Notes: generated by a model not told the origin, from the letters alone. A stretch of DNA of 15,968 bases from Promethearchaeota archaeon (GCA_048939015.1 JBHLPW010000088.1:1-15968); one strand, 5' to 3'. Shown: positions 172 to 15,968, counted from the stretch's first letter. Numbers and translations are program-made.

Positions 172-699
172 TTGGAGCAATATAAAAAAGAATTAAATGA
201 GAGAATATTTAATCCAACCGAAAATATCAACTCTGTAAAGGGATTTGAAATAATATCTGAGTCTTTAGTCTATCAAGTTTTTGATGTATTCGGACGTAAT
301 AGCTTATTGTCTATTCTATATCAAACTGGAGTTCATCCTGGGAATATTATAGCAGAAAGAATTAAAAAAGAATATGGAAAAGAAAAATTTGAAATAGTGG
401 AAGCTTTAGTAATTCTAATGGATGAGTTAAAAGAATTTTATTCGATACAAGTTCGAGACGTTGAACAATACGAAGATAAATACAGAATTGTTATTGAAAA
501 TCACTGTTTTTTACGTAAACCAATAAGTCACCGTGAGAAATTAGATTTTGGAAAAGCATTTTGTAGAATTAATAAGGGATATTTTGAAACGGCGTTCCAA
601 AAATTATTGGGGGATAATATAAAGAAGATTGAGATAAATTTTCTCGAAAATGATGATGAAAAGGATGTTTGTGTTGAAGAACTAAATTTTTACCTTTAA
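172..699 (+). CDS. V4R / TRAPP-Bet3 / MetOD1-like fold protein (putative small-ligand or metal-binding domain)
   Basis: 175 aa, TTG start. Helical N-half (LYQTG..G..IA). C-half pattern IENHCF...AFCRINKGYFE...EINF...DVCVEELNF with three spaced Cys resembles V4R-type domains. Family call is by motif recognition only. Confidence 0.55.
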   Translation: MEQYKKELNERIFNPTENINSVKGFEIISESLVYQVFDVFGRNSLLSILYQTGVHPGNIIAERIKKEYGKEKFEIVEALVILMDELKEFYSIQVRDVEQYEDKYRIVIENHCFLRKPISHREKLDFGKAFCRINKGYFETAFQKLLGDNIKKIEINFLENDDEKDVCVEELNFYL

Positions 700-1033: not shown

Positions 1034-1040
1034 GAGGTTG
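1034..1040 (+). promoter_or_regulatory. Shine-Dalgarno-like site GAGGTTG
   Basis: Lies 9 nt upstream of ATG 1050, supporting 1050 over TTG 1038 as the start. The same core occurs at 3599-3604 and 9078-9084 (minus). Confidence 0.6.
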
Positions 1041-1049
1041 AAAAAACAA

Positions 1050-2222
1050 ATGACAGATATTAAAAATGTAGTTGTAGTAGGTGCAGGGCAAATGGGTCAT
1101 GGAATTGGCCAAATGGCTTTGATGGCAGGATATAACGTAACACTGGTAGATATAAAAGATGAATATGTTGACAAAGGATGGTCTAAAATAGATGAAGGTA
1201 TGAAAAAACTCGAAGCAAAAGGTACTTTACCAGAAGGTAAAACCGCTGCTGATTTAATGGCAAATTGTAAAAAATCAACTGATTTAGCATCAGCAGTAAA
1301 AGATGCTGATATTATGATTGAAGCTGTTATTGAAAAAATGGATATAAAACAGCAAGTTTTTAAAACTTGCGGAGATAATGCACCATCTCATTGTATTCTT
1401 GCATCAAATACGTCTACAATGAGCATTACAGATATAGGTAAAGAATCTGGTAGACCAGATAAGTGTATAGGAATGCATTTTTTTAATCCAGTTCCCTTAA
1501 TGAAGTTGATTGAGGTGATTTATAGTGAACATTCTTCTGATGAAAGTATAAACAGTGGAATGGATTTTGCAAAGTCAATACCTTGTTTACGAGGAGAACG
1601 ATATATCGCAAAAGTGCTAAAGGATAGACCGGGATTTATCTGTAATCGAGTTACTGCACCCCCCCAAATTTATCAAAATTATGTGTTTGATAAATGTGCT
1701 GAAGAAGGATTCTCGTGGGACCAACTGGATAATGATGCTCGATCTGGACCGATGTCAGTTACAGTTTTAGCGGATTATGTAGGTATCGATGTTTTATACC
1801 ATGGTCAAATGTATTATTCCAAAACACTTTCACCTGATTTTGCTCCAGGTAAAGTAATTACTAAGTTGTACAATGAAGGAAAGCTAGGTATGAAAACAGG
1901 ACAAGGCTTTCGTGACTGGTCAAAAGGTAGACCACAGCCAGATAAGAGTGCTGGAAAAGCACGAATTTATAAGTTAAAATATCCAATAGCGATTATGCTT
2001 AATGAAGCATGTAGACTTTTAGAGGAAGGAGTTACCACTAGTTGGGAAGTAATTGACAAATCAGTAATGGCAGGTATGAACATGCCAGGACCAATGGCTC
2101 CAAATATAAATACTTGGCAGAAGCAAGTGGAAGTATTAAATGAACTTGTTGAGCTCACAGGTATAGAATATTTTAAACCTTGTGAATTATTAAAATCTGG
2201 TAAGTGGGTAGATATGAAATAA
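1050..2222 (+). CDS. 3-hydroxyacyl-CoA dehydrogenase, NAD-dependent, long form with duplicated C-terminal domain (paralog 1)
   Basis: GAGQMGHG Rossmann motif, acidic LVD, IEAVIE, ASNTST, catalytic GMHFFNPVPLMKLIE, DRPGFICNR, GKLGMKTGQGF, and a second C-domain (LNEACRLLEEG...GMNMPGP). Start set at ATG 1050 because both paralogs begin MTDIKN and an SD precedes it. Confidence 0.95.
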   Translation: MTDIKNVVVVGAGQMGHGIGQMALMAGYNVTLVDIKDEYVDKGWSKIDEGMKKLEAKGTLPEGKTAADLMANCKKSTDLASAVKDADIMIEAVIEKMDIKQQVFKTCGDNAPSHCILASNTSTMSITDIGKESGRPDKCIGMHFFNPVPLMKLIEVIYSEHSSDESINSGMDFAKSIPCLRGERYIAKVLKDRPGFICNRVTAPPQIYQNYVFDKCAEEGFSWDQLDNDARSGPMSVTVLADYVGIDVLYHGQMYYSKTLSPDFAPGKVITKLYNEGKLGMKTGQGFRDWSKGRPQPDKSAGKARIYKLKYPIAIMLNEACRLLEEGVTTSWEVIDKSVMAGMNMPGPMAPNINTWQKQVEVLNELVELTGIEYFKPCELLKSGKWVDMK

Positions 2223-2265
2223 ACTTTTGGAATTGTATAATTTTACTCAAAATTGGTGAATTAGT

Positions 2266-3453
2266 ATGACTGATATTAAAAATATTGTAACATTAGGTGT
2301 TGGCCTTATGGGCCAAGGAATTGCCCAAGTTGCCTTAATGGCAGGCTATAATGTCACATTAGTAGATGTTAATGAAGAATTGGTGAATAAAGCATATACG
2401 AGTATTGAGAAAGGTGTTAAAAAATCTGAAGAAAAAGGTGTATTAGGAGAGGGTGTGACGTCGGCTGATATAATGGCAAGATGTAAAAAATCTACTGATT
2501 TAGCTTCAGCTGTGAAAGCCGTCGATATGGTTATTGAAGCTGTTATAGAAAAAATGGACATTAAAAAGCAAGTTTGCAAAACAACAATGGATAATGGTCC
2601 TTCACATATTATTTTTGCTTCAAATACTTCGACAATGAGCATAACAGAAATCGGTAAAGATTGTGGTGCTCCAGACAGAGTTTCAGGGATGCATTTCTTC
2701 AATCCTGTCCCCTTAATGAGATGTATTGAAGTAATTCGAGGAGAAGATACTTCTGATAAAACATTTCAACAGACTATGGATGTAGCAAACAACCTACCTT
2801 GTTTAAGAGGTGCAAGATATATTGCTCCTGTTTTAAAAGATCGTCCTGGATTTATAGTAAACAGGATGAATGCTCCTATGCAAATATATTTAGGGTGGGT
2901 TTTTGATACTGCTAAAGAAAAAGGAATACCTGCGGAAGGTATTGATGCAGATGCAGGAGGAAAAATGCCGATGGGACCATGTGAGTTATCTGATTACGTT
3001 GGTTTAGATACTATGATACATGTGATGAATTATTACAAAGAAACACTTTCACTCGACTTTGAACCACCAAAAGTTGTTAAAGAAATGGTAGACACAGGTA
3101 ATTTGGGAGCAAAAACAGGTAAAGGATTTTATGATTGGAGTTCTGGAAGGGAGGGAATTAAAGCAAAAGTGAAAGCTGCAGAACCGGCAGGATTATTTAA
3201 TTTAGAAACTTCAATGGCGATTTTATTGAATGAAGGATGCCGAATATTAGAAGAGGGTATTGCATCTGGTTTTAAAATTATTGATGATGCAAATATGGCT
3301 GGAATGAATAGCCCAGGACCTTTTGCAGCAGGTAAAAAGAATTTTGAAAAATGGAGTGGTATACTAGAAGAATTAGCAAACAAAACTGGAAAAGATTATT
3401 TAAGACCTTGCGCCTTAATGAAATCTGGAGAATTTGCTAAAATGAGAAAGTAA
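2266..3453 (+). CDS. 3-hydroxyacyl-CoA dehydrogenase, NAD-dependent, long form (paralog 2)
   Basis: GVGLMGQG, IEAVIE, ASNTST, GMHFFNPVPLMRCIE, DRPGFIVNR, PMGPCELSDYVGLD, GNLGAKTGKGFY. SD-like GGTGA at 2255-2259; 43-nt gap from paralog 1. Confidence 0.95.
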   Translation: MTDIKNIVTLGVGLMGQGIAQVALMAGYNVTLVDVNEELVNKAYTSIEKGVKKSEEKGVLGEGVTSADIMARCKKSTDLASAVKAVDMVIEAVIEKMDIKKQVCKTTMDNGPSHIIFASNTSTMSITEIGKDCGAPDRVSGMHFFNPVPLMRCIEVIRGEDTSDKTFQQTMDVANNLPCLRGARYIAPVLKDRPGFIVNRMNAPMQIYLGWVFDTAKEKGIPAEGIDADAGGKMPMGPCELSDYVGLDTMIHVMNYYKETLSLDFEPPKVVKEMVDTGNLGAKTGKGFYDWSSGREGIKAKVKAAEPAGLFNLETSMAILLNEGCRILEEGIASGFKIIDDANMAGMNSPGPFAAGKKNFEKWSGILEELANKTGKDYLRPCALMKSGEFAKMRK

Positions 3454-3466
3454 ATATCAAATATTT

Positions 3467-3501
3467 AATTTTTATTCATTCTTTTTTTTTTATTTATTTT
3501 T
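3467..3501 (+). terminator. Oligo-T terminator after the dehydrogenase pair
   Basis: T10 run at 3482-3491 with flanking T runs, just after the stop at 3453. Confidence 0.55.
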
Positions 3502-3611
3502 ATGATAACGAAATTCATTTTGAAAATTTTTAATTTTAATAAAAATAATACTAAATATCTTAAAATCAAATTTTAATAATGGTAAAAACAATTTAAAAGA
3601 GGTTAGATTAA

Positions 3612-4442
3612 ATGTCAGAAAAGAAATTTGAACATGTAGAGGTTGAGAAAAACGAAGAAGGAAATTATGCAGTTATTTCCATCAATAGACCCGATAAATT
3701 AAATGCACTTACAACACAAACCTTAAGAGAGATTTATGAAGCAATGGAACAATTCGAACTTGAACCTACTGTTAGATGTATTGTCCTGAGAGGTACAAAA
3801 AATGTTACAAAAAAACCTGCATTTTCTGCTGGTGCTGATTTATCTTCTCCCATGGGAAAGGGATTAAAACCAAATATTCCAGTTCATTGGACAATATCAA
3901 TGCAACAAAAACATAAATATTATACATTAATTGAACAATTTCCAAAACCAGTAATTGGGGCTGTGGATGGTTATGCTTTTGGAGGAGGATGTGAATTATC
4001 TCTTGTTTGTGATATTCTAATTGCTACCAAACGATCTTTTTTTGGATTTCCTGAAATAGCAAGAGGTATTTTTCCTGGTAATGGAGGAACTCAAAGAATG
4101 GCAAGACGTATCGGGGTAAATCGAGCATTAAACATGATTTATTTTGGAGAACGTGTGTCAGCAGAGAAAATGTATGAATGGGGGCATGTAAGTTATTTAT
4201 GTGATGATGGCGAAGAATTTGAAAAGCTTGTTCATGAAAAAGCTTCAAAGTTAGGATGTGGACCTACTACTAGTCTATTATGCATAAAGAAAGCAGTTAA
4301 ATTTGGAACTCAAGTACCCTTAGATATTGGAATCCAGTTCGAAATGCTTGGATTCGGAGTAAACGCAGGCTCTAAGGATGTTAATGAAGGCATTACAGCA
4401 TTTCTACAAAAACGGGACCCAAAATTCACTGGTGGAATATAA
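3612..4442 (+). CDS. Enoyl-CoA hydratase (crotonase family)
   Basis: INRPDKLNAL, FSAGADL oxyanion motif, PKPVIGAVDGYAFGGGCEL, FGFPEIARGIFPGNGGTQR (both catalytic Glu present), C-terminal EGITAFLQKRDPKF. SD GAGGTT at 3599-3604. Confidence 0.95.
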   Translation: MSEKKFEHVEVEKNEEGNYAVISINRPDKLNALTTQTLREIYEAMEQFELEPTVRCIVLRGTKNVTKKPAFSAGADLSSPMGKGLKPNIPVHWTISMQQKHKYYTLIEQFPKPVIGAVDGYAFGGGCELSLVCDILIATKRSFFGFPEIARGIFPGNGGTQRMARRIGVNRALNMIYFGERVSAEKMYEWGHVSYLCDDGEEFEKLVHEKASKLGCGPTTSLLCIKKAVKFGTQVPLDIGIQFEMLGFGVNAGSKDVNEGITAFLQKRDPKFTGGI

Positions 4443-4458
4443 AATCTCCCTTAACCTA

Positions 4459-4500
4459 TTTTTTCCATTACATTTTTTAACCCTTTTTTTTGATATTTTT
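4459..4500 (+). terminator. Pyrimidine/oligo-T tracts after the hydratase
   Basis: Several T5-T8 runs within 60 nt of the stop codon. Confidence 0.45.
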
Positions 4501-4551
4501 GTGTAGCTAATTGTTATTATTATTTGAAATAATATCATCAAACTTTGAAAA

Positions 4552-5109
4552 ATGATTAGGAACTCTGAAGTAGTTGAAGAACTTATAGATGGAAATCTTT
4601 TGTTAAGAAAAATATCTAAAGATGATGCAGAATTTATATTTAAAAGTTTAAATGATAATGATTTAACCACTTATTTATCCTTAGGTCCATTAAAAACATT
4701 TGAATACGCGAAAAGATTAGTGAAAAATTATTTAAAATATTGGGATAATAATATTCAATTTAATTATATTATCGAACTAATGGGAGAGAAAAAAGTAAAA
4801 GTTGGCTCCATTAGTCTTTGGAATATTAATTGGAAACATTATAGAGCTCAGATTGGTATCTGGATAATTCCCACTTTCTGGAATAAAGGATTAGGAGAAA
4901 AATCTATAAACCTAATGAAAATTATTGGATTTAAACATCTCAAAATTAATCGATTTGAAGCTTACATAGCAGCAGAAAATAAGAGATCAATATTTCTTTT
5001 TAAAAAATGTGGATTTAAAGAAGAAGGAACTTTAAAGCAATATTTGAATTTTCAAGGGAAGTTCTATGATGCCTTGGTGCTAGCTTATTTAAAAGAGAAT
5101 GGAATTTAA
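4552..5109 (+). CDS. GNAT family N-acetyltransferase, RimJ/RimL (Acetyltransf_3) type
   Basis: LLLRKISKDDAE start, AQIGIWIIPTFWNKGLG acetyl-CoA motif, ENKRSIFLFKKCGFKEEGTLK, GKFYD. Substrate unknown. Confidence 0.9.
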   Translation: MIRNSEVVEELIDGNLLLRKISKDDAEFIFKSLNDNDLTTYLSLGPLKTFEYAKRLVKNYLKYWDNNIQFNYIIELMGEKKVKVGSISLWNINWKHYRAQIGIWIIPTFWNKGLGEKSINLMKIIGFKHLKINRFEAYIAAENKRSIFLFKKCGFKEEGTLKQYLNFQGKFYDALVLAYLKENGI

Positions 5110-5199: not shown

Positions 5200-8100
5200 T
5201 TATTCCGATGGCACAGTTTTTTCCTTAATTGGGACTGGTATTTTAGCTTCGGTTTCTTGAGTAGGTTTCTTCTTCCGGATTGGTGGTTTTAACTTTAATA
5301 CACTGGATGTTTTACTCAATTCCGTTGTATAAATGGAGTTAAATGCTTTTTCACGACTACTAATTTTTATATTGGGGGCAGTTTTACGTTTTAAACTTTT
5401 TCTGAATTTCCGAACTCTCCTAACAGGTTTTGGAAATCTCAATACACGCATATAAACTATAAGATATGACACTAAAATTCCCGCAGCTATTGAGATACCT
5501 ATTAATAATCCTTGAAATAATAGTAAATCTTGTTTAGGCCTAATTACACTTAAAACAATTTCATAAGGTTCAAAAGCATAATGATCCCCAGCATATGCAT
5601 ATACGGTTATAATAAATGAACCTTCTGGGACATCTGATATGACCACTTCATATATACCATCATTCTCAGGATCAGTCAATTCACCTGGCTCATATTGCCA
5701 TCTATAAGTTACTGTTGCTCCTTTAATCATACCACCAAAATCTAAATCATATAATACTATACTTAACGTAATAGATTTACCTGGAGAAGTAGAAATGGTG
5801 TTTTTACCAGATACCGTTGTTATATTCGTGCTAATTCTTTGAATATTAATATAAATATTTTGGATGAAGAAAGGTTGAAAATTCGGTCTTTCAGCCAGAA
5901 TACTAAAAACATTAATACCAATACTTAATTGAGTTGTATTAACGATAAGATAATATTGTTCTAAACTGGCATTTTCATCTAAAACCGCTGTAAGATCTCC
6001 ATCTAACCGAATCGTTGCTCCTGGAATGAAATTTCCTGTTTTACCATCAAAAAATCTTAGAGTGAAATTTACTAGACTCCTTACAGGCACTTCCAGATAT
6101 GGATCATCTGTTTTGTTTACCGTATTTAGCAATAGTACACCATCCGATTCTCTTTCAACAACTTGTACAAAAAATTCTATTAATGCATATTGATAATTTT
6201 CTATTTGTGCTCCTATAGATAGTCTATTTAGACTTTTTTCTAAATCAAACACATTTACAGTTATATTATAGAATTCTAATATTGGATTCTCATCTAAGCT
6301 GCCTTTACCGAATAATTCGATTGTTGCATTATTAAGGAATGTTTTTGTCACATTATCAAGGTACTTTACAGTAACATTGAGTATATCATTAATTTCAGCC
6401 TCTATTGTCTCACCATCAAAATATTGAGTACCATTTATATATAATTCTATACTCGATTCCTTTTCATCAATTAACACTGTTACCAATTCTGTAGAAAAAG
6501 TATAATTATCCTTGTTTGCAGTTATCGTTAAAAATTTAACACCTGCTCCTAACAATTCCGTCTCAACTATTATACTGTAGTAATGCAAAATTGGATGTTC
6601 ATCTAAATCTTCTGGAGTTCCTGTTTCAATCATTTGGACAGAGGCAGAACTGATTAACAAATCACTAATAAAATCTCTATAGAAAACAGTAATATTTAGG
6701 AAATCTCCAACAGAAGTGTTATAATATTGAGATGGGATATATAGTGAGTTATTAATATAGATTTCTAGATTAGTTTCTCTTTCTAATACAGATATTGTTA
6801 TGATTTTGGTTGCTATACTATAATTATCCTTTCGAGCTGAAATGGTTAAAAAGTTAACTCCAAGTTTTAATTTACTTGTGCTAATATCTGTAGAATAATT
6901 TAATGGAGAATTTTCGGTGAAATTTATTGAAATTCCTGTTCCTATTAGTTGTACTAAAGCATTATCAATGAAATTATCTGTTAAAGTATCATTATATGTA
7001 ATAGCAATGTTTAAATTCTCATTCCATGGAATTTCTATTAGGATAGATTCAGTTTTGTTCAAATATATTTTATCAATATAAGAACTTCTTTCAAGGACTT
7101 CAATTTTAAAACGAATTGATTGAGAAGTGTAATTTTCTTTTATGGCATTAACACTTAAATACGTCGTCCCTAACCCTAAATCTTTAGTATCAATTATAAT
7201 AGTATATTGATCCAATCCATAATCTAATAAATCTTGAGGGTCACCTAATCCAATTAAACTTACATTAGCATTATTAATATGAACATAAGGATACGATTCT
7301 TTATCCTTATACGTAATTGTTATGTTTCCACTGTTTCCATATATCATTGTGATCGATTTATCTAATGTTTCATTGTTTCTATCTAAATATAATTGTAAAT
7401 CCGTCTCTCTTTCTAGAACTTTAATGTTAATCAGAATAGATTTTGATTCATAGTATTTTTTACTTGCAGACAGAGTTAAGTAATTATTTGAAAGATTTAA
7501 TTTAGATGTATGAACAGTAATGTTATATTGACCTATAATATCATCTTCTGATAAATTTTTAGGAGATCCTAACCCAATTAATTGCACTGTAGCATTTTGA
7601 ATAAAGTCTGATGAGGTTTGGTTTTTGTATACAAATGTAATATTAACTGCGTCCCCCATAGTGACCTCGATTGATTTTTCCAAAGTTTTATCTATAGAGT
7701 TTAGTAGTAGATCATAAGAAGTTGTTTCTTCTACAATGTTTTCTGTATACGATATTAATAGACTAGCATTATCTATTGATACTGTGATTGTTTGATTTAA
7801 AGTAAAAGTATCTGCTAAATATACTTGTATAGAGACTGATATATTTACCTCTTTTAAAATCAGACTTGTAACATCAAATCCTCCACTTTTTATATCTTGA
7901 AAGGTATCTTTCGCTTTAGATAATTTAACAGTTTCAGTATGGACTCTATTATTTATATATACTCTAATCTCTGAATTAGGAGACGACGTTGTCCAATTCT
8001 GTTGATCAATTTTATACTTGAAATTCAATGTAGCATTTTCAATATCGATATTTGATCCCATTAATGTATTTCCTATTTGATTCCATGAAAGAGATGTAAA

Positions 8101-9069
8101 TTGATCAATTCTTTTCTCATAACTTATTGTAAGGTTAAAAGTTTTAATTATCAATAAATCCCAAATATCAACATCACCACCAAATTCATTGTCTTCACAA
8201 TAAAGGTCAATTCCCATTGTTATAGTAAAATTGCGATTATCAGTTTGCAAAACCGCAGTTAATAAGTTAATTAAAACATTTTCTGGTACGTTACTCATTT
8301 CATCTGAAATAGTTGGAGTAGGTGGGTTATCTCGTCCTAAATTAACAGTTTGATTATATGCAACTTGATATTCTTGAGTTTTTGGCAAATCTGAGATTCG
8401 GACATAAAAAGTAGCAAAATCTCCCACAGAATAATATATGACGCCTGTGTCACCGTTTCGGTCGATTCCATTAATACGAGGTGATACAGTCACTGTTGCA
8501 TTAAATGTTACATTTAATTTTGCAGCTGTAATAACATAATCTGACATATTAACCGGCATATTAATGTCTCTTTCCCAATGAATACTTGGAGTATTTCTTG
8601 TTTGATTAACATTTTCATCCCAGGTATGTGTAATCCAGCATCCACGAGAATCAACTCCATAAGAATCTGGTCTAACAGGAAATTCTGGATTTGATTTATT
8701 AATCCAATATGTTTTACTTAGGGGATCATCAATTCGATATACCCCAGAATCACCAATTACTTCAAAATTTGCTTGATCTTGTTCTGTGGTGGCATTAACA
8801 TCAGTACTATCTCCTTCAGTTATATTATACCATGGGTCTATAGGAGTTTCAAAAGTGGGATTCTTAAGCCATTCTGTTGTATGTGGTTCTTGTATAATTC
8901 CTTGATTCTTAAGCGCTAAATCATCCTCATCATCTTTCTCGATATTATTTTCAACATAAAAAGCACTTTGGTTTAATAAGGAATTGTTTATAAAAATATT
9001 GGATAATATTAAAGCAATTAAGACTGTAAAGATTAAAATTTTTTTATTCCTATGGCAAGATTTTCTCAT
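5200..9069 (-). CDS. Large membrane-anchored cell-surface glycoprotein (head domain, 7 Ig-like repeats, TM, basic tail)
   Basis: 1289 aa. N-terminal basic plus hydrophobic signal or anchor; beta-rich head (about 7741-8892); seven ~100-aa repeats, several ending V[LV]ER; many N-x-S/T sequons; TM LLLFQGLLIGISIAAGILVSYLIVY; Lys/Arg-rich tail. SD GAGGTTG at 9078-9084. Confidence 0.85.
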   Translation of the reverse strand: MRKSCHRNKKILIFTVLIALILSNIFINNSLLNQSAFYVENNIEKDDEDDLALKNQGIIQEPHTTEWLKNPTFETPIDPWYNITEGDSTDVNATTEQDQANFEVIGDSGVYRIDDPLSKTYWINKSNPEFPVRPDSYGVDSRGCWITHTWDENVNQTRNTPSIHWERDINMPVNMSDYVITAAKLNVTFNATVTVSPRINGIDRNGDTGVIYYSVGDFATFYVRISDLPKTQEYQVAYNQTVNLGRDNPPTPTISDEMSNVPENVLINLLTAVLQTDNRNFTITMGIDLYCEDNEFGGDVDIWDLLIIKTFNLTISYEKRIDQFTSLSWNQIGNTLMGSNIDIENATLNFKYKIDQQNWTTSSPNSEIRVYINNRVHTETVKLSKAKDTFQDIKSGGFDVTSLILKEVNISVSIQVYLADTFTLNQTITVSIDNASLLISYTENIVEETTSYDLLLNSIDKTLEKSIEVTMGDAVNITFVYKNQTSSDFIQNATVQLIGLGSPKNLSEDDIIGQYNITVHTSKLNLSNNYLTLSASKKYYESKSILINIKVLERETDLQLYLDRNNETLDKSITMIYGNSGNITITYKDKESYPYVHINNANVSLIGLGDPQDLLDYGLDQYTIIIDTKDLGLGTTYLSVNAIKENYTSQSIRFKIEVLERSSYIDKIYLNKTESILIEIPWNENLNIAITYNDTLTDNFIDNALVQLIGTGISINFTENSPLNYSTDISTSKLKLGVNFLTISARKDNYSIATKIITISVLERETNLEIYINNSLYIPSQYYNTSVGDFLNITVFYRDFISDLLISSASVQMIETGTPEDLDEHPILHYYSIIVETELLGAGVKFLTITANKDNYTFSTELVTVLIDEKESSIELYINGTQYFDGETIEAEINDILNVTVKYLDNVTKTFLNNATIELFGKGSLDENPILEFYNITVNVFDLEKSLNRLSIGAQIENYQYALIEFFVQVVERESDGVLLLNTVNKTDDPYLEVPVRSLVNFTLRFFDGKTGNFIPGATIRLDGDLTAVLDENASLEQYYLIVNTTQLSIGINVFSILAERPNFQPFFIQNIYINIQRISTNITTVSGKNTISTSPGKSITLSIVLYDLDFGGMIKGATVTYRWQYEPGELTDPENDGIYEVVISDVPEGSFIITVYAYAGDHYAFEPYEIVLSVIRPKQDLLLFQGLLIGISIAAGILVSYLIVYMRVLRFPKPVRRVRKFRKSLKRKTAPNIKISSREKAFNSIYTTELSKTSSVLKLKPPIRKKKPTQETEAKIPVPIKEKTVPSE
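5540..7725 (-). repeat. Seven degenerate ~100-105-aa Ig-like stalk repeats (protein level)
   Basis: Recurrent hxhhhN....hNhThxY.D.....I..A.V.L.G....L.E.....Y.I.h.T..L..G...h.h.A.K.NY. Diverged at the DNA level; boundaries approximate. Confidence 0.8.
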
Positions 9070-9077
9070 ATTTAATA

Positions 9078-9130
9078 CAACCTCGATAAATATTTAATAT
9101 TTAAAAATTACAAATTAGGATATAAATTTT
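9078..9130 (-). promoter_or_regulatory. SD (GAGGTTG, 9078-9084) and candidate TATA box (AAAATTTATA, 9130-9121) for the 1289-aa gene
   Basis: SD is 8 nt from ATG 9069. The TATA-like element is about 50 nt upstream, but TATA calls are weak in DNA this AT-rich. Confidence 0.4.
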
Positions 9131-9349
9131 GTATATATTCTTATTAAGATATATTTCTATATTTCTTATAATAATTTTCCTTTATTTTTTTAAATTTCAT
9201 CTATAATGATTAAGCTATTTATTCCTTTGTAAATTTTTTAAGATTAAATTCAAAAACAGTTTATTATAAGAAAATGTTATTCTTCAATAAAAGATATTGA
9301 GATACGAATGATTTAACGTTAATTAATAATTGAATTCTTGACTTAAATT

Positions 9350-9359
9350 AAAAAAAAAA
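9350..9359 (-). terminator. T10 tract after the 1819-aa gene
   Basis: A10 on the plus strand, about 18 nt downstream of the stop at 9378. Confidence 0.5.
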
Positions 9360-9377
9360 TAATTGCATTTTATAATT

Positions 9378-12300
9378 TTATATATTTGGAGTATTACTAT
9401 TTGAGTCTTTAACCAATTTGTCTAATTCTTCTTTTTTCTCAAGTATTTTCTCAGTTAACTGATTTGGTTCCATTGGTTCTTCTAATGGCTTTTCAGGGCC
9501 TTTATCTGAAGGTATTTTTTGAACCTTAGGTTTAATCACTCCAGGATGACGTTTTAATTTTAAATCACTTGTAGATTTTCCTAAATTTTCATTATAGGCT
9601 ATTTTAAAGGCAGTTTCTTTTCCAATAATTGGAGTTTTTGGAGCAGTTTTGTATTTTAGAGATTTCCTAAATTTCCTGACTTTTCTTACTTGTTTAGGAA
9701 ATTTTAAATAAGTTTGGTATGCATAAAGATAAATCGCTAAAGCACCGATTACAATCATTGAGACTACAAATAAGATAGGAAAGAGAGGATTTTCTGGTAC
9801 CACCTCACTAGTTGCAGCAATAACTATTACGTAATCTTCAACAAAATAATTATCACCGATAAAAGCGGAAATTTCTATAGGAGAAGTACCTTCAGGTACA
9901 TTTGGCATAGTAGCCTCATATATGCCATCATCATTAAGATCCTCTAGAATACCCACACGACCCTCCCAACTATAAGTAACAATTGCTCCTGTAATAAATC
10001 CACCAAAATCAGTATTATTTAATCTGATTCTCACAAAAACATCAGTTCCAGTTTTGGTCTCTATTGTATTAGTTCCAGTAGCCGGTTCGATTTGTACATT
10101 GATCCTCTTAACAGAAACTGTGATATCTACAATTTTAGCTTCGAGGGATTCTGTTTGCGCTGTAACCCTCAATAAATTTGTTCCTGTTTTTAAACTTTGA
10201 TTAGTATCAATAAGTATTGAATATTGTTCAAATGTGATACTCTCATTAATATATGAGGTAAATGTTTCAGAGGATAATAGAATAGTTGCTCCAGAGATAT
10301 GGCTACCATTAAGTAATTTATATTTTAGGGTCACATTAAGTATTTCGCTAACAGTAAGTTCTATAAATGGATCTTGAGTGACATTTTGGCGATTTAATAT
10401 AACCTGTAAATCTTCTGTCGGAAATTTATTAATCCTTACAATAAGATCTATTACTTTTGAATAGTGGTCTTCTGCTTGGGCAGTTATAGTTAAAAAGTTT
10501 ATACCTGCATCCGCTACAGTCGTGTTCAAAATTATTGTATACTGTTCAAGAATTTCATCTTCCTTTAAAAAACCAGTAAAGTTTCCAGTTACTTGCACAG
10601 TAGCATTGGGTATATGAACTTTTGACATATTTAAATATTTAATTGTTATATTTAGAGAATCACCAATAAAAATATCAATATCGGGATCATCAGTTTTATT
10701 AACACTATTTAAGAATAGATGGATTTCTGTTTCTTTATCGGGAAATATTATTGTATACGTAAGATCGAGATATACTTCATCAATTGAAATTACAATAGTT
10801 CTATTATTTCCAAATTCATCTGCGATGTAAATTTGAATAGAAAGATTGACATCATCTATAATTAATGAAGTTATATCAAATCCTCCCACTTTAGCTTCTT
10901 GAAATGTTGTGTTTGCATCGACTAATTTTATTGTTTCAGTATGTAAATTATCATTAATTAAAATTCTAATCTCGGAATTTGGGGATGTATTAGGCCATGT
11001 AGCGTTAGTCTTATATTTAAAATTAAGAATTGCCTTATTAACTACAACTGTATCATTACTTATATCACTAATCTTATCTGCATTTTGATTCCAAGATACA
11101 GAAGTAAATTGATTAATCCTTTTTACATATGTAAATGTCAAATTACAGGATTCAATATATAAAGAATTCCAAATATCACGATCACTTATCCAATTATCTT
11201 CACACCAAATTCTAATTCCCAATGTAATTGTAAAGTTATGATTATCACTTCCAAGGACGGAGGATAAGTAAAATATTAGAGCTTCTTTTGGGACTGTTGT
11301 CATGAATGTTGAAGGCATTGAATCAGTAGCACCCGCAGAATCTTTTCCAAGATCAACCGTTTGATTATAGGCAATTTCATATACTTTATCTTTATTCAAG
11401 TCTGATAAAAGAATATAAAATCGAGCATAATCCCATGTGTAATTTTGAATACCTGAATAAGTAGCATCTCCTGGACATTCTACTCCCCCTCCACTCCAAT
11501 CTCCAGGGGAAGCTGTAACTGTGCCACTAACAGTAGCAGCAATGTTTGCATCTGTGATAATATAATCTGACATATCATCTACTATAGATACGTTTCTCTC
11601 CCAATGTACACTTGGGAACTGAGTAGCCAATTCTGCAAATGAATGAGAAACGTAACAGCCTTGAGCATTTATAGTTGCTGTGTCTGGATATAAAGGAAAT
11701 TCAGGATTATGAACTTGCTGCCAATCTGTGATAAGAGGTGTTCCTGATATTTCATTGAAAGTTTTTTCTTCTCCCAAAATTTCATAATTTGCTTGTCCTG
11801 GACTTGTTGTTGCATTTACATCTGAATTATCTCCTAATGCACCATATGAAGAAAACCATGTAGGTTCTATAGGTGCTGTAAAATTAGGATTATCAAGCCA
11901 CTGTTGAGTAAAAGATTCTTGAGCCGAAATCCCAAGTCCATTAAGATTTTCATTAACAACATTATAAAACGAGTTTTCAGGAAATTTAAATAAATTTTGA
12001 GCAAATAAAGGATTAAGTATTGACGAAGACAATAAGAGTGTTGCTAAAATCATAATCAAATAGAATATTTTTCCATTTTTATTCATTTTTAACGAATTTT
12101 TCCAAAAATTTCTTATTCTTAATGTAAAAGGTCTTTTGAAAGTTCTTTGCGTATTTTTGTTATTCCTTGTACGGTCATCTGGTTTATAGGAGTTTGTATT
12201 TGGATTTTTCGAATCACTCACTAAATCAACTTTAGGAGGTAATGGTTCTTTTTCCATAATTTTCTCTATACTCTCTTCTTCCTCTTCCTTTTTTGGCTTT

Positions 12301-14837
12301 TTCTTTAAAAATCTAATTGTTTTAGGTAATTCTTGTTTATAAGCAGAATTGAATGCTTTTTCACGACTTAAAATACTGACATTAGGAGCTCTTGTTCTCT
12401 TTAGACTTTTTCGAAATTTTCGAACTTTTCGAACAGTTTTAGGATATTTTAACACTTTCTGATAAGCATAAAGATAACCCCCTAATCCTATGGAAATTAC
12501 TATACCTATTATTAATAGGATTAGAAAAAGAGGTGATCCTGGCCTTGGTTTGCTCGCAACTATTATAAATTCAAGACTTACAAAATTATATTTATCACTT
12601 CCAAAAGCGTTAATAACTATATAATGAGTTCCTGCAGGTATATCCAATATATCTGCTTCATAAATACCATCATTGTCTATATCTTGAAGTAATCCGCTTT
12701 CTTCATTCCATGTATATGTTACTATTGCTCCTTTGATAAGTTCATTAAAATCTGTATTGTTAATATATACTTGTATATTAATATCTTCACTGGGACGAAT
12801 ACTGATTGCATTAGAATTATTAACTGCTGTTATAACTGAATTAATTTTTCTCACTGTAATTCTGGGGTTTTTAAATTGATCTTCAAAGTTTAACTTATTA
12901 GCCTCAACCGTTAAAAGATTGATACCAGGATTTAATTTTATTGAACTATTAACAATGATTGAATATTGATTTAAACTAATGCTTTCATTTAGAGTTTCTA
13001 TTATTCCTTCCCCAAATAAAGTTACTGTTGCTCCGGTTATTGGTGTTCCTAAAAGGGTGTTATATTTCACTGTTATATTTAATAGACTATCCAAAGGAAC
13101 GTCAATTACAGGATCAGATGACATATTATCACCGTTTAAGAATAATTCCAACTCATTTGTCTCAGTCGGTAATACAGTTATAATTGGACTTAAAGTACTC
13201 AATTCAAAATTTACTTTATGAGCAACAATTTTAAAATAAATTATTCCTACGTCCAAATCATTAGCATCAATTATTATTGTATATTGTTCATGTGCTGGAT
13301 CTTCTAATAAACTCCCTGTGAGATTTCCAGATAACAGTACTAGCGCCCCTGGAATATGATTTCCAGTATCATCAGGGTATTTTACAGTTATATTTAAGTC
13401 ATTCCCCACAGGATGATCGTATATAGGGTTAGAGGTTTTGTTAATTCCATTGAAAAATACTTGAATATTTGTTTGAAAATCAGGGAATATAACTGTATAA
13501 GTGATATTTAGATAAACATCATCGAGAGAAATAGTAATATTTCGATCTAAACTGAATTCATCTGCAAGATAAACTTGGATTGAAAAATTAATGTCCGTGT
13601 TATATGGAATTAACGATTTAACGTCAAATCCACCTGTTTTCGCAATTTGGAAACTTTCATTCGCCTTACTTAGTTTTATCGTTTCTGATAATTTATTAGT
13701 GTTAATATAAGCCCTTATTTCCGAATTTGGAGAAGCATTTGGCCATTTATCATTTATTTTATATTTAAAATTAAGTTTAGCTTCATTTAATATAACTGTA
13801 TCACTGATATTGCTAATTTGATTTCCATGTTGATTCCATGATATCGAAGTAAATTGATCAACCTTTTTTTCATATGTAAAAGTTAGGTCACACGTCTTTA
13901 TTCTTAAAGAATCCCATCTATCACGATCATAATTAAAATTGTCAACACATTTTATTCTAATTCCAAGCGTGATCTGGAAGTGATAACTATCACGTTCAAA
14001 AAGTGAAGTCAAATAAAAAATTAAGGCTTCTTGTACAACGGTATTCATAAAGCTGTCTGTTATATTGCTAATTTCAGGATCGTCTTGACCTAAATCTATA
14101 GTTTGGTACCAGGCAATTTCATATATTTCATTACGTTCCAAATCAGATATCTGTACATAAAATCTTGCTGTATCATAATCACCTGGTTGATCCACAGAAT
14201 CATTTGGTGTATCTACGCCATAGTAGGGATTTGGTGATCCTGCACCACCAGGCTGAGTAGTAACTGACGCATTAAATACAGCTGAGATATTTGCAGACGT
14301 AATTATATAGTCTGACATATCAACATCCATTGTAATATTTCTAACCCAATGGATACTAGGAGATTGTATTGGATCATCTGGATCGATCCATGTATGCGAT
14401 ACTTCACAACCATATTCATCAATGTTATTGAAATCTGGAGGAGCTGGAAACGCAGGGTTTGTTACATTTATCCACCCAGGAGAACTTGATGAATTTGGAG
14501 TCCCTAACACTTGCGTAAAAGTACGTTTGTCTCCTAGAACGCTTAAATTTACATGCCCTAATCCTGCTGTGGCTTCTACATCTGAAAAATCTCCTCCTTT
14601 CTGGGAATACCATATAGGTTCGATTGGATCTTCAAAAGTAGGATTTTCTAGCCATACAGCTGTAAGCGTTTCTTGAGCTGCCATACGAGGGTCGATAGAA
14701 TCTGAATCTCCAAATTTATTATCGGAGTATATTTTTTGACTTTGAAATATGGAAATAGTAAGAAGTGATGATGAAATTATAATGATAAGTGCATAAATTG
14801 CTAAAATTCTCTTTTTTTTATAGTTATTCAGTCTCAT
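9378..14837 (-). CDS. Large cell-surface glycoprotein made of two complete fused modules (each: anchor, head, 3 Ig-like repeats, TM, basic tail)
   Basis: 1819 aa, uninterrupted. Four hydrophobic segments; heads at about 13494-14675 and 10752-11921; the same tail motif at 12339-12464 and 9594-9719. Paralog of the 1289-aa gene. Confidence 0.85.
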   Translation of the reverse strand: MRLNNYKKKRILAIYALIIIISSSLLTISIFQSQKIYSDNKFGDSDSIDPRMAAQETLTAVWLENPTFEDPIEPIWYSQKGGDFSDVEATAGLGHVNLSVLGDKRTFTQVLGTPNSSSSPGWINVTNPAFPAPPDFNNIDEYGCEVSHTWIDPDDPIQSPSIHWVRNITMDVDMSDYIITSANISAVFNASVTTQPGGAGSPNPYYGVDTPNDSVDQPGDYDTARFYVQISDLERNEIYEIAWYQTIDLGQDDPEISNITDSFMNTVVQEALIFYLTSLFERDSYHFQITLGIRIKCVDNFNYDRDRWDSLRIKTCDLTFTYEKKVDQFTSISWNQHGNQISNISDTVILNEAKLNFKYKINDKWPNASPNSEIRAYINTNKLSETIKLSKANESFQIAKTGGFDVKSLIPYNTDINFSIQVYLADEFSLDRNITISLDDVYLNITYTVIFPDFQTNIQVFFNGINKTSNPIYDHPVGNDLNITVKYPDDTGNHIPGALVLLSGNLTGSLLEDPAHEQYTIIIDANDLDVGIIYFKIVAHKVNFELSTLSPIITVLPTETNELELFLNGDNMSSDPVIDVPLDSLLNITVKYNTLLGTPITGATVTLFGEGIIETLNESISLNQYSIIVNSSIKLNPGINLLTVEANKLNFEDQFKNPRITVRKINSVITAVNNSNAISIRPSEDINIQVYINNTDFNELIKGAIVTYTWNEESGLLQDIDNDGIYEADILDIPAGTHYIVINAFGSDKYNFVSLEFIIVASKPRPGSPLFLILLIIGIVISIGLGGYLYAYQKVLKYPKTVRKVRKFRKSLKRTRAPNVSILSREKAFNSAYKQELPKTIRFLKKKPKKEEEEESIEKIMEKEPLPPKVDLVSDSKNPNTNSYKPDDRTRNNKNTQRTFKRPFTLRIRNFWKNSLKMNKNGKIFYLIMILATLLLSSSILNPLFAQNLFKFPENSFYNVVNENLNGLGISAQESFTQQWLDNPNFTAPIEPTWFSSYGALGDNSDVNATTSPGQANYEILGEEKTFNEISGTPLITDWQQVHNPEFPLYPDTATINAQGCYVSHSFAELATQFPSVHWERNVSIVDDMSDYIITDANIAATVSGTVTASPGDWSGGGVECPGDATYSGIQNYTWDYARFYILLSDLNKDKVYEIAYNQTVDLGKDSAGATDSMPSTFMTTVPKEALIFYLSSVLGSDNHNFTITLGIRIWCEDNWISDRDIWNSLYIESCNLTFTYVKRINQFTSVSWNQNADKISDISNDTVVVNKAILNFKYKTNATWPNTSPNSEIRILINDNLHTETIKLVDANTTFQEAKVGGFDITSLIIDDVNLSIQIYIADEFGNNRTIVISIDEVYLDLTYTIIFPDKETEIHLFLNSVNKTDDPDIDIFIGDSLNITIKYLNMSKVHIPNATVQVTGNFTGFLKEDEILEQYTIILNTTVADAGINFLTITAQAEDHYSKVIDLIVRINKFPTEDLQVILNRQNVTQDPFIELTVSEILNVTLKYKLLNGSHISGATILLSSETFTSYINESITFEQYSILIDTNQSLKTGTNLLRVTAQTESLEAKIVDITVSVKRINVQIEPATGTNTIETKTGTDVFVRIRLNNTDFGGFITGAIVTYSWEGRVGILEDLNDDGIYEATMPNVPEGTSPIEISAFIGDNYFVEDYVIVIAATSEVVPENPLFPILFVVSMIVIGALAIYLYAYQTYLKFPKQVRKVRKFRKSLKYKTAPKTPIIGKETAFKIAYNENLGKSTSDLKLKRHPGVIKPKVQKIPSDKGPEKPLEEPMEPNQLTEKILEKKEELDKLVKDSNSNTPNI

Positions 14838-15131
14838 ATTGGGTTTTCATTGGTTATTTAATTTAAAACTTTTGATTAAGTTAGTATACCAAATTATGTA
14901 ATAAATAATTTGCCACTTGATCCCAAATACATTTGAAATATATTCTTATCTGAAAATCATTAGGATAACTTTAAATATAAATTAAATTAAAGAATTCTAA
15001 TAGCTCCAAATGTGTATTTTATATAAATATGAAAAAAGTTTAATTAAATAATAATAATACATAATACTTAAGAAATAATATTAAAATTTTAATTTAAAAA
15101 ACATATTTATCAAGTTTTTGAAGTGATATAA

Positions 15132-15968
15132 TTGATCCAAGGAATTTTGACATTTCAGTTCAAGATTAATCAAAAAGAGACGGGAGAAATAGAACCAGAG
15201 TTCGATCCTATCCAATTAGTCTTTCGAGATGATACCTATGATGAAGAGGATTTTTCAGAATTGCTCTCTCAAAACGATATTTTTGCAATTTTTTATCAGC
15301 ATACGACTGGTTTATTTGGTGTTAAGTACAGCTATAGCAACTATTATGAAGGAAGATTGAAGGACACACCCTATCAAGTAATATCTTATTTTAAACAAGT
15401 CGCTGATGGAACTCAATATTTAGCTATTTCAATATTCGAGTTAGATGATGAAATTGATATTTTTGATGATTTAATTAAAGAGATGGGAAAAAGACTAGAT
15501 GTAATATTTGATAAGTTAACACGAGCAAGAAATTCAAAGCAACTGTCTTTAATCGAAAATATTAATATACGATTAAAGAATGAAGTAAAATTTACTATTT
15601 TTCAAGTAGATAGATTATCTAATTTGGATAAACTTCAAAAAGTAGCTTTAATCTATAATAGTGTAGAGCGTATGAAGATCTTGGAAACTTTACGAGACTA
15701 TCCAATTTCAAAAAAGGAAATGAAGAATATATTAGAGAAAATGAGTTCTAATATTAATATTGATATTCTTTTACAACCTTTTCTAGAACTAAATATTATA
15801 CGTCGTGATTGGATAAAAGGAGAAAAAGATAAAAAAACAGGAGAGATAACTCATCAAGGAGAATATTTATTTCTTGTTAAAGACTTGATGCTTGCTCGCG
15901 TACCTAATGAAAATCTATTAAATCATTTTAAAGATACAAAAAATGAATTACTACCTTTATACAAACAA
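15132..15968 (+). CDS. Partial conserved-looking hypothetical protein: putative longin-like N-domain followed by a winged-helix-like region
   Basis: Not in the ORF track because there is no stop in the window. TTG at 15132 follows SD-like GAAGTGAT; 279 open codons reach the edge: MIQGILTFQFKINQKETGEIEPEFDP...YQVISYFKQVADGTQYLAISIFELDDEIDIFDDLIKEMGKRL...ERMKILETLRDYPISKKEMKNILEK...IDILLQPFLELNIIRRDW...GEYLFLVKDLMLARVP. The CDS is secure; the fold call is tentative. Confidence 0.8.
   Translation, partial: MIQGILTFQFKINQKETGEIEPEFDPIQLVFRDDTYDEEDFSELLSQNDIFAIFYQHTTGLFGVKYSYSNYYEGRLKDTPYQVISYFKQVADGTQYLAISIFELDDEIDIFDDLIKEMGKRLDVIFDKLTRARNSKQLSLIENINIRLKNEVKFTIFQVDRLSNLDKLQKVALIYNSVERMKILETLRDYPISKKEMKNILEKMSSNINIDILLQPFLELNIIRRDWIKGEKDKKTGEITHQGEYLFLVKDLMLARVPNENLLNHFKDTKNELLPLYKQ

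Follow-up and report, generated by a model that had tools for sequence, protein, structure and literature searches.

The window analysed here is the whole of a 15,968-nucleotide (nt) contig, C106, from a Promethearchaeota archaeon (GCA_048939015.1 JBHLPW010000088.1:1-15968), one of 125 contigs in an assembly of 4.86 Mb with 29.8% G+C. Positions 5200–14837 are occupied by two large minus-strand open reading frames (ORFs), P0001 and P0002, which encode surface proteins built from three modules. Each module comprises, from the N to the C terminus, a signal anchor, a head of roughly 400 amino acids (aa), immunoglobulin-like (Ig-like) stalk repeats, a membrane-proximal domain, a transmembrane helix and a tail. 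This tail is our subject; it may serve as a docking motif for a cytoplasmic protein encoded beside the surface-protein array. The relevant features, with E values from hidden Markov model (HMM) searches, are listed below.

5200..9069, minus strand: P0001, a 1289-aa single-module surface protein, recognized from its ORF and translation and from HMM matches to head and stalk
5281..5466, minus strand: tail of P0001, 62 aa, containing the motif at 5329–5454 (E = 2.6e-28)
5467..5535, minus strand: transmembrane helix before the P0001 tail, as modelled by AlphaFold2; the predicted helix takes in roughly the first 9 tail residues and ends at 5440
9378..14837, minus strand: P0002, a 1819-aa two-module fusion, with module A (residues 1 to about 917) followed by module B
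9546..9731, minus strand: tail of P0002 module B, 62 aa (E = 1.8e-25)
about 9732–9800, minus strand: equivalent transmembrane helix of module B
12291..12476, minus strand: tail of P0002 module A, 62 aa, internal, in the cytoplasmic loop before the second anchor (E = 1.3e-27)
about 12477–12545, minus strand: equivalent transmembrane helix of module A
14838..15131, no strand: AT-rich intergenic region of 294 nt separating the surface-protein array from the divergent partner gene
15132..15968, plus strand: candidate partner gene, a divergent ORF left open at its 3′ end by the contig edge, encoding the N-terminal 279 aa of a cytoplasmic protein of about 420 aa

P0002 is a head-to-tail fusion in which the module A tail is followed by a cytoplasmic linker of about 70 aa, a second anchor (around residue 918; near 12086) and a full module B. 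This fused form is kept in other genomes (P0006, P0009, L007 and L017), and the same units occur as separate tandem genes at L015, L012 and L019. N-glycosylation sequons (N-x-S/T) reach 3.55 per 100 aa in P0001 and 2.69 in P0002, against 1.3–1.4 in shuffled sequence, which places the two proteins at the 99.7th and 97.5th percentiles of the long ORFs in the genome. The tails hold zero or one sequon and carry a net charge of +12 over their first 32 residues. A sequon-rich ectodomain and a sequon-poor, basic tail fit a topology that is glycosylated outside and basic inside. Relatives come only from Asgard (Promethearchaeota) assemblies, labelled Loki-, Thor-, Hod- or Hermod-. The head of module A (13464–14675, minus strand) is confidently predicted to be an all-beta tandem jelly-roll (predicted local distance difference test (pLDDT) score 87, predicted TM-score 0.83), and Foldseek relates this model to carbohydrate-binding-type domains (BcsB, PNGase F, SGBP-B, reelin, meprin MAM and 4h3w), all with low TM-scores. 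The membrane-proximal domain gives only sub-threshold Pfam matches (PKD/Big_1).

A preliminary description of this DNA had reported an indel-free 42-aa cytoplasmic motif in all three modules, better conserved than the stalk. Translation of the minus strand places the three peptides exactly at 5329–5454, 12339–12464 and 9594–9719; they align without gaps, 22 of 42 positions are invariant, and the pairs of modules share 30, 25 and 26 of 42. In the three-module alignment the invariant fraction of the tail is 48%, compared with 21% for the stalk repeats, 36% for the head, 31% for the membrane-proximal domain, 14% for the transmembrane helix and 30% overall. At that background, 22 or more invariant positions in 42 have a binomial probability of 0.002. 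The tail is the second-best 42-residue window of the alignment, the best being a head segment starting SPNSEIR (24/42). The 42-aa motif is present, but the conserved unit is longer than had been proposed, beginning at YLxxY within the membrane helix and ending at LKxKP, a length of about 60 aa. The predicted transmembrane helix of each module has the first invariant Tyr at its cytoplasmic end, and the motif itself starts 4 residues further on.

The tail is constrained residue by residue. In an alignment of 39 tails, Y5, P12, R16, R19, K20, L25 and F42 are invariant. A profile of this alignment, searched against 1.84 billion representative proteins, matched just 198 clusters at E ≤ 1e-3. The representatives of clusters formed at 50% identity supplied 164 unique tails, in all of which Y1, Y5 and P12 are fixed; L25 is conserved in 91% and position 38 is Arg in 90%. 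Arg and Lys are hardly exchanged: position 16 is Arg in 99% and Lys in 0%, position 17 Lys in 92% and Arg in 4%, position 19 Arg in 86% and Lys in 3%, and position 20 Lys in 92% and Arg in 1%. A generic stop-transfer flank would account for the cytoplasmic excess of Lys and Arg (+12), yet the identity and spacing of these residues are also kept, gap-free, across families. Because Arg and Lys are fixed position by position, conservation of the tail exceeds what the positive-inside rule requires, as had been suggested from the window alone; the possibility that only net charge would survive in a broad alignment did not materialize, R16, K17, R19 and K20 being 86–99% fixed. This pattern of constraint calls for a specific ligand.

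We modelled the P0001 transmembrane helix and tail (5215–5568 of the window) as an AlphaFold2 monomer from a 39-row alignment (mean pLDDT 74). The model contains a long transmembrane helix (model residues 12–43, pLDDT 89–98) that reaches tail position 9, followed by the K-Y-P-K-P-V-R-K-V-R-K-F stretch (model residues 44–55) as coil at pLDDT 59–77. After this basic coil come a one-turn helix and then a helix from R38 to S54 at pLDDT 74–87, in agreement with the second helix (RExAF..Y..EL) anticipated in the preliminary description. This second helix is not amphipathic (hydrophobic moment 0.12).

The range of proteins that carry the tail is narrow. It had been asked whether unrelated ectodomains share it, and the best 150 of the 198 clusters answer in part: the long carriers among them include 28 with the head only, 19 with head and stalk, 42 with an alternative N terminus of about 640 aa plus the stalk, and none with neither head nor stalk. 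The heads thus differ, but no long carrier lacks both the family head and the Ig-like stalk, so the tail belongs to one domain-shuffling superfamily. Carrier architectures in the genomic loci follow the same pattern. Occurrence of the tail on unrelated proteins was considered and rejected, the 198 clusters being the only ones found and their long members all bearing the family head and/or stalk. Because the head-only proteins and those combining an alternative head with the stalk share nothing else, the tail, with its transmembrane helix, is the constant part of the superfamily.

To place the tail phyletically we used 301 Asgard genomes in 30 families, in which f1 is the family of the window and f2 its order-mate. 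The full 62-aa profile is strong in f1 (63/68 genomes) and f2 (6/7) only, that is, in the order of the window. Its weak matches outside the order are real, resting on a gap-free 38-aa core of the form aromatic-x3-Φ-x-Φ-P-x-x-V-R-K-Φ-R-K-Φ-x3-Φ…P. In every case inspected, this core follows a transmembrane helix and lies at the C terminus of an ORF of 800–6200 aa with the same stalk repeats. A profile that includes the core sequences of distant families (threshold E ≤ 1e-4) matched 155 of the 301 genomes and 9 of the 30 families: f1 (63/68), f2 (6/7), f5 (4/4), f9 (57/76), f14 (18/19), f23 (3/3), f4 (1/1), f28 (1/1) and f29 (1/11). It found nothing in f7 (0/28), f16 (0/11) or f24 (0/21). Pfam and NCBIfam hold no match to the tail and no family for the whole proteins, a sequence-profile search of the PDB returned only E > 1, Foldseek found no match for the model of transmembrane helix and tail, the ESM Atlas yielded nothing, and the literature we searched describes neither the tail nor the surface-protein family.

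Next to the array, at 15132–15968, lies the divergent partner gene, the remainder of which is found on another contig (C21:152231-152740). Its product is 66–90% identical among 9 orthologues, far above the surface proteins, and has no Pfam match (E ≤ 0.01), models of the longin, NPR2 or folliculin type included, and no PDB sequence match. All four partner paralogues in the genome of the window adjoin a tail-bearing giant:

C106 (the window): divergent, 294 nt from the array
C91, 4851-5975: begins downstream of the giant, with a 3-nt gap
C76, 10511-11629 and 2107-3225: each overlaps the end of a giant whose tail is more divergent

The two C76 giants (C76:3222-8951 and C76:11623-17496, both minus strand) are proteins of about 1900 aa with a different N terminus, which carries a W-W-x-x-S-W-R-Y-R motif; their divergent tails (R-I-P-x-x-V-K-K-x-R…) are each followed by their own 373-aa partner paralogue.

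The linkage extends to other genomes. In f1 the divergent arrangement recurs in more than 25 genomes. In f5 and f23 the tail gene and the partner gene are co-directional, with gaps of 8–23 nt, and in f29 one genome has a tail/partner pair within about 200 nt. The f2 genes form operons, in the order partner, TrmB-like protein, surface protein in a closed genome, and as three surface genes followed by the partner and then the TrmB-like protein in a second. Overall, adjacency holds in 7 of the 11 non-f1 genomes examined and in at least 5 families (f1, f2, f5, f23 and f29). Tail and partner also occur in the same families: 9 have both, none has the tail only, 6 have the partner only and 15 have neither. 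The match extends to subtypes, with the 420-aa partner type and the 62-aa tail type sharing the same order-level range, and a partner type of about 370 aa, like the partners of distant families, accompanying the C91-type tail, which resembles the tails of distant families. Distances between tails follow those between partners across 11 adjacent pairs (Mantel r 0.89), a correlation reached in 0 of 5000 permutations, although these statistics are overstated because related genomes are not independent.

In f1 and f2 the gene after the partner encodes a protein of 636–784 aa with an N-terminal TrmB helix-turn-helix (HTH) domain (31.2 bits against a Pfam cut-off of 25.6), a helical region of about 300 aa and a conserved C-terminal domain. 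Three of these TrmB-like genes are:

C21:149994-152207, minus strand
L008:972-3179, minus strand
L067:2921-4828, minus strand

We found no other conserved neighbours across the loci; the downstream genes in distant families are not common to them.

Stalk-bearing giants of the same genome that lack the short tail have a fused cytoplasmic domain instead and no partner-type neighbour. They are encoded at:

C95:48799-54285
C2:29232-33968
C120:22111-27357
C51:26809-29109
C55:1-4692
C87:33874-40593

The fused domain is about 250 aa long in four giants, starts R-S-Y-V-I-x-P-R-K-R-R, contains N-I-Q-A-I-V…S-G-F-I-Q-A-I and ends in a winged-helix-like segment. We considered and rejected it as a homologue of the partner (hhalign probability below 1%).

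The conservation pattern and topology of the tail, its gene linkage to the partner, and the co-distribution and parallel diversification of the two are observed. Because the neighbour is the sole conserved, linked, co-distributed and co-diversifying cytoplasmic candidate, we read the tail as a candidate docking motif for this protein of about 370–420 aa, a reading we hold tentatively, as one that falls just short of an even prospect. The linked cytoplasmic gene gives circumstantial support to the adaptor docking raised in the preliminary description. Physical binding of tail and partner, with its consequences, is what we infer. Ig-like stalk, transmembrane helix and tail make up a conserved anchor unit of an Asgard-specific superfamily of glycosylated surface proteins, and the tail is the end of this unit that lies in the cytoplasm. 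The membrane helix ends in an aromatic belt with two invariant Tyr residues, after which a Pro breaks the helix. The basic stretch comes next, about 16 residues long and with hydrophobics at a period of three to four (V-R-K-V-R-K-F/Y-R-K-x-L-K); another Pro follows, and a short extended segment leads to the second helix (R-E-x-A-F-x3-Y-x2-E-L). This tail would recruit a cytoplasmic protein, for which the product of 15132–15968 is the prime candidate, and in the order of the window the partner gene is followed by that of the TrmB-HTH coiled-coil protein. In this way the surface protein might be connected with an intracellular module that signals to transcription or acts as a scaffold.

A more elaborate form of this proposal seems doubtful to us: that every paralogous receptor binds, by its own variant of the tail, a cognate cytoplasmic protein of winged-helix type, and that whatever its glycan-binding-type head encounters outside is relayed inward. 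In the order of the window, the TrmB-like DNA-binding coiled-coil protein might also be held, with gene expression or a scaffold as the output. This would amount to an archaeal receptor–adaptor system independent of bacterial anti-sigma pairs and of eukaryotic adhesion receptors.

Several points weigh against docking to the neighbour, beside the non-independence of related genomes. The tails and partners examined in f9, f14 and f4 lie on different contigs. No natural tail–partner fusion appears among the 150 best tail-bearing representatives, and the larger ORFs that contain the partner have no transmembrane helix or tail. Confidence of AlphaFold2 in the basic stretch is just moderate, and lipid binding by that stretch may coexist with docking or replace it. 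The product of the third gene contains a genuine TrmB HTH, and one f23 partner shows sub-threshold MarR/TrmB matches; adjacency, co-distribution and parallel divergence would also be expected if the neighbours did no more than regulate transcription of the array locally.

This last point leads to the alternative that the tail docks some other system (actin-associated, small GTPase, ESCRT/ubiquitin or kinase), with the neighbours acting as local regulators of the array. Divergent or co-transcribed regulators beside their targets are commonplace, the two HTH observations just given point the same way, and the Lys-rich tail is compatible with another docking system. Against it, no further conserved neighbour occurs across the loci, and in one genome four tail variants are paired one-to-one with four partner paralogues, which is more specific than regulation requires, although duplication of whole loci could yield the same pairing. 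We consider this alternative unlikely.

About equally improbable is a lipid-facing role, in which the tail would lie as a juxtamembrane basic amphipathic helix on the anionic leaflet, with no protein partner and with neighbours unrelated to its function, and would fix topology, tilt or clustering, or sense or shape curvature. The net charge of +12 in the first 32 residues suits this role, as does the hydrophobic moment computed from the averaged hydrophobicity of tail positions 13–28, which peaks at 100–110 degrees (0.61, where shuffled sequences average 0.28; p about 0.01). The f9 version of the basic stretch, which lies between a Pro and a Gly-x-x-Pro, looks like a textbook amphipathic helix. 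AlphaFold2, however, models the stretch as coil at pLDDT 59–77, so that the amphipathic helix of the preliminary description is supported by the periodicity but not by the model. Head-group binding should, moreover, permit exchange of Arg and Lys, between which four positions discriminate almost absolutely, and it leaves the second, non-amphipathic helix and the invariant Tyr and Pro residues unexplained.

It is very unlikely that the tail is a signal for targeting, insertion or sorting, whether as a reinforced stop-transfer element or as a tag for a sortase-like processing enzyme. As in sortase- and archaeosortase-type signals, a C-terminal transmembrane helix precedes it and it is strongly basic. 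The 'new C-terminal sorting signal' suggested earlier is nevertheless contradicted, because the tail also occurs internally, mid-protein in the conserved two-module fusions, and because this 60-aa element is followed by further, variable residues (median 28); the outer side of the transmembrane helix also lacks a conserved motif (helix invariance 14%). An NCBIfam scan of both proteins and the three tails gave no match to a sorting domain, only chance matches at E > 0.1. The archaeosortase and exosortase domains (PGF-CTERM, PEF-CTERM and PEP-CTERM) resemble the tail in combining a C-terminal transmembrane helix with basic residues on surface glycoproteins. PGF-CTERM and its relatives, however, have their signature outside the membrane and a basic tail of a few residues at the extreme C terminus, whereas the Asgard tail has a cytoplasmic signature, is 60 aa long, is sometimes internal and has no NCBIfam model.

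That the likeness of the tails is a by-product of recent duplication or gene conversion can be set aside: the three modules are adjacent paralogues, but synonymous sites are saturated (same codon at identical residues in 0.50–0.56 of cases in the tail and 0.52–0.56 in the ectodomain, with about 0.5 expected from codon usage; tail nucleotide identity among modules 58–67%), other genomes contain separate orthologues of each module's tail that share the residues peculiar to that module, and the motif is kept across families.

Several known systems bear comparison with the docking we propose. Eukaryotic single-pass adhesion receptors with adaptor-binding tails (integrin beta, cadherin, the syndecan C1 region, and CD44/ICAM with ERM proteins) likewise combine a variable glycosylated ectodomain, an Ig-like stalk and one transmembrane helix with a short tail that is the best-conserved part and bears a juxtamembrane basic cluster. 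In contrast to those receptors, we found no relation in sequence or fold, and the candidate partner, which has no Pfam match, is not of the FERM, talin or catenin type. The likeness may concern how the proteins work rather than what they belong to. The EGFR JM-A segment and the MARCKS effector domain share with the tail a basic, membrane-adjacent stretch, about 15 residues long, in which hydrophobics recur periodically, the moment of the tail peaking near 100 degrees; they act largely electrostatically and have loose Arg/Lys needs, whereas in the Asgard tail Arg and Lys are fixed by position and a second conserved helix follows. Membrane sensors that retain a cognate cytoplasmic regulator, such as anti-sigma factors of the RsgI type with SigI, are alike in their variable outer domains of glycan-binding type, single transmembrane helix and conserved inner segment, and in having paralogous pairs in which the adjacent gene encodes a cognate, HTH-related cytoplasmic protein. 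They differ in that there is no homology and in that the inner segment of the Asgard proteins is a short basic tail, not an anti-sigma domain; sequestration of the partner would be pure inference. Archaea are not known to have sigma factors.

Cultured Lokiarchaeia lack an S-layer, and cryo-tomography has revealed 'complex surface proteins' of unassigned identity on their cells (PMC9834061). These proteins may mediate cell–cell contacts relevant to eukaryogenesis. The tail-bearing family is a concrete candidate for some of these proteins. The tail and its cognate neighbour offer a short, directly testable handle on how the Asgard surface may be wired to the cell interior. If they do bind, they would be the first receptor–adaptor pair described in archaea, and binding would explain why the inner tail has outlasted the shuffling of the outer domains.

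Elsewhere in the window, an inverted-repeat search of the intergenic region (14838–15131) found only weak repeats in AT-rich DNA. A near-perfect palindrome at 14890–14912 (CAAATTATGTA-A-TAAATAATTTG) in this divergent promoter region could be an operator, or could equally have arisen by chance in DNA of 80% A+T. A 175-aa ORF at 172–699 (plus strand) has no Pfam match and a local G+C content of just 25%. Positions 1038–5109 (plus strand) hold two tandem 3-hydroxyacyl-CoA dehydrogenase genes, an enoyl-CoA hydratase gene and a GNAT (Acetyltransf_3) gene, the last convergent with P0001. The GNAT, hydratase and dehydrogenase genes are syntenic with the array in 12–14 related loci, and because this linkage is confined to f1 and the genes lie on the opposite strand, we read it as plain synteny.

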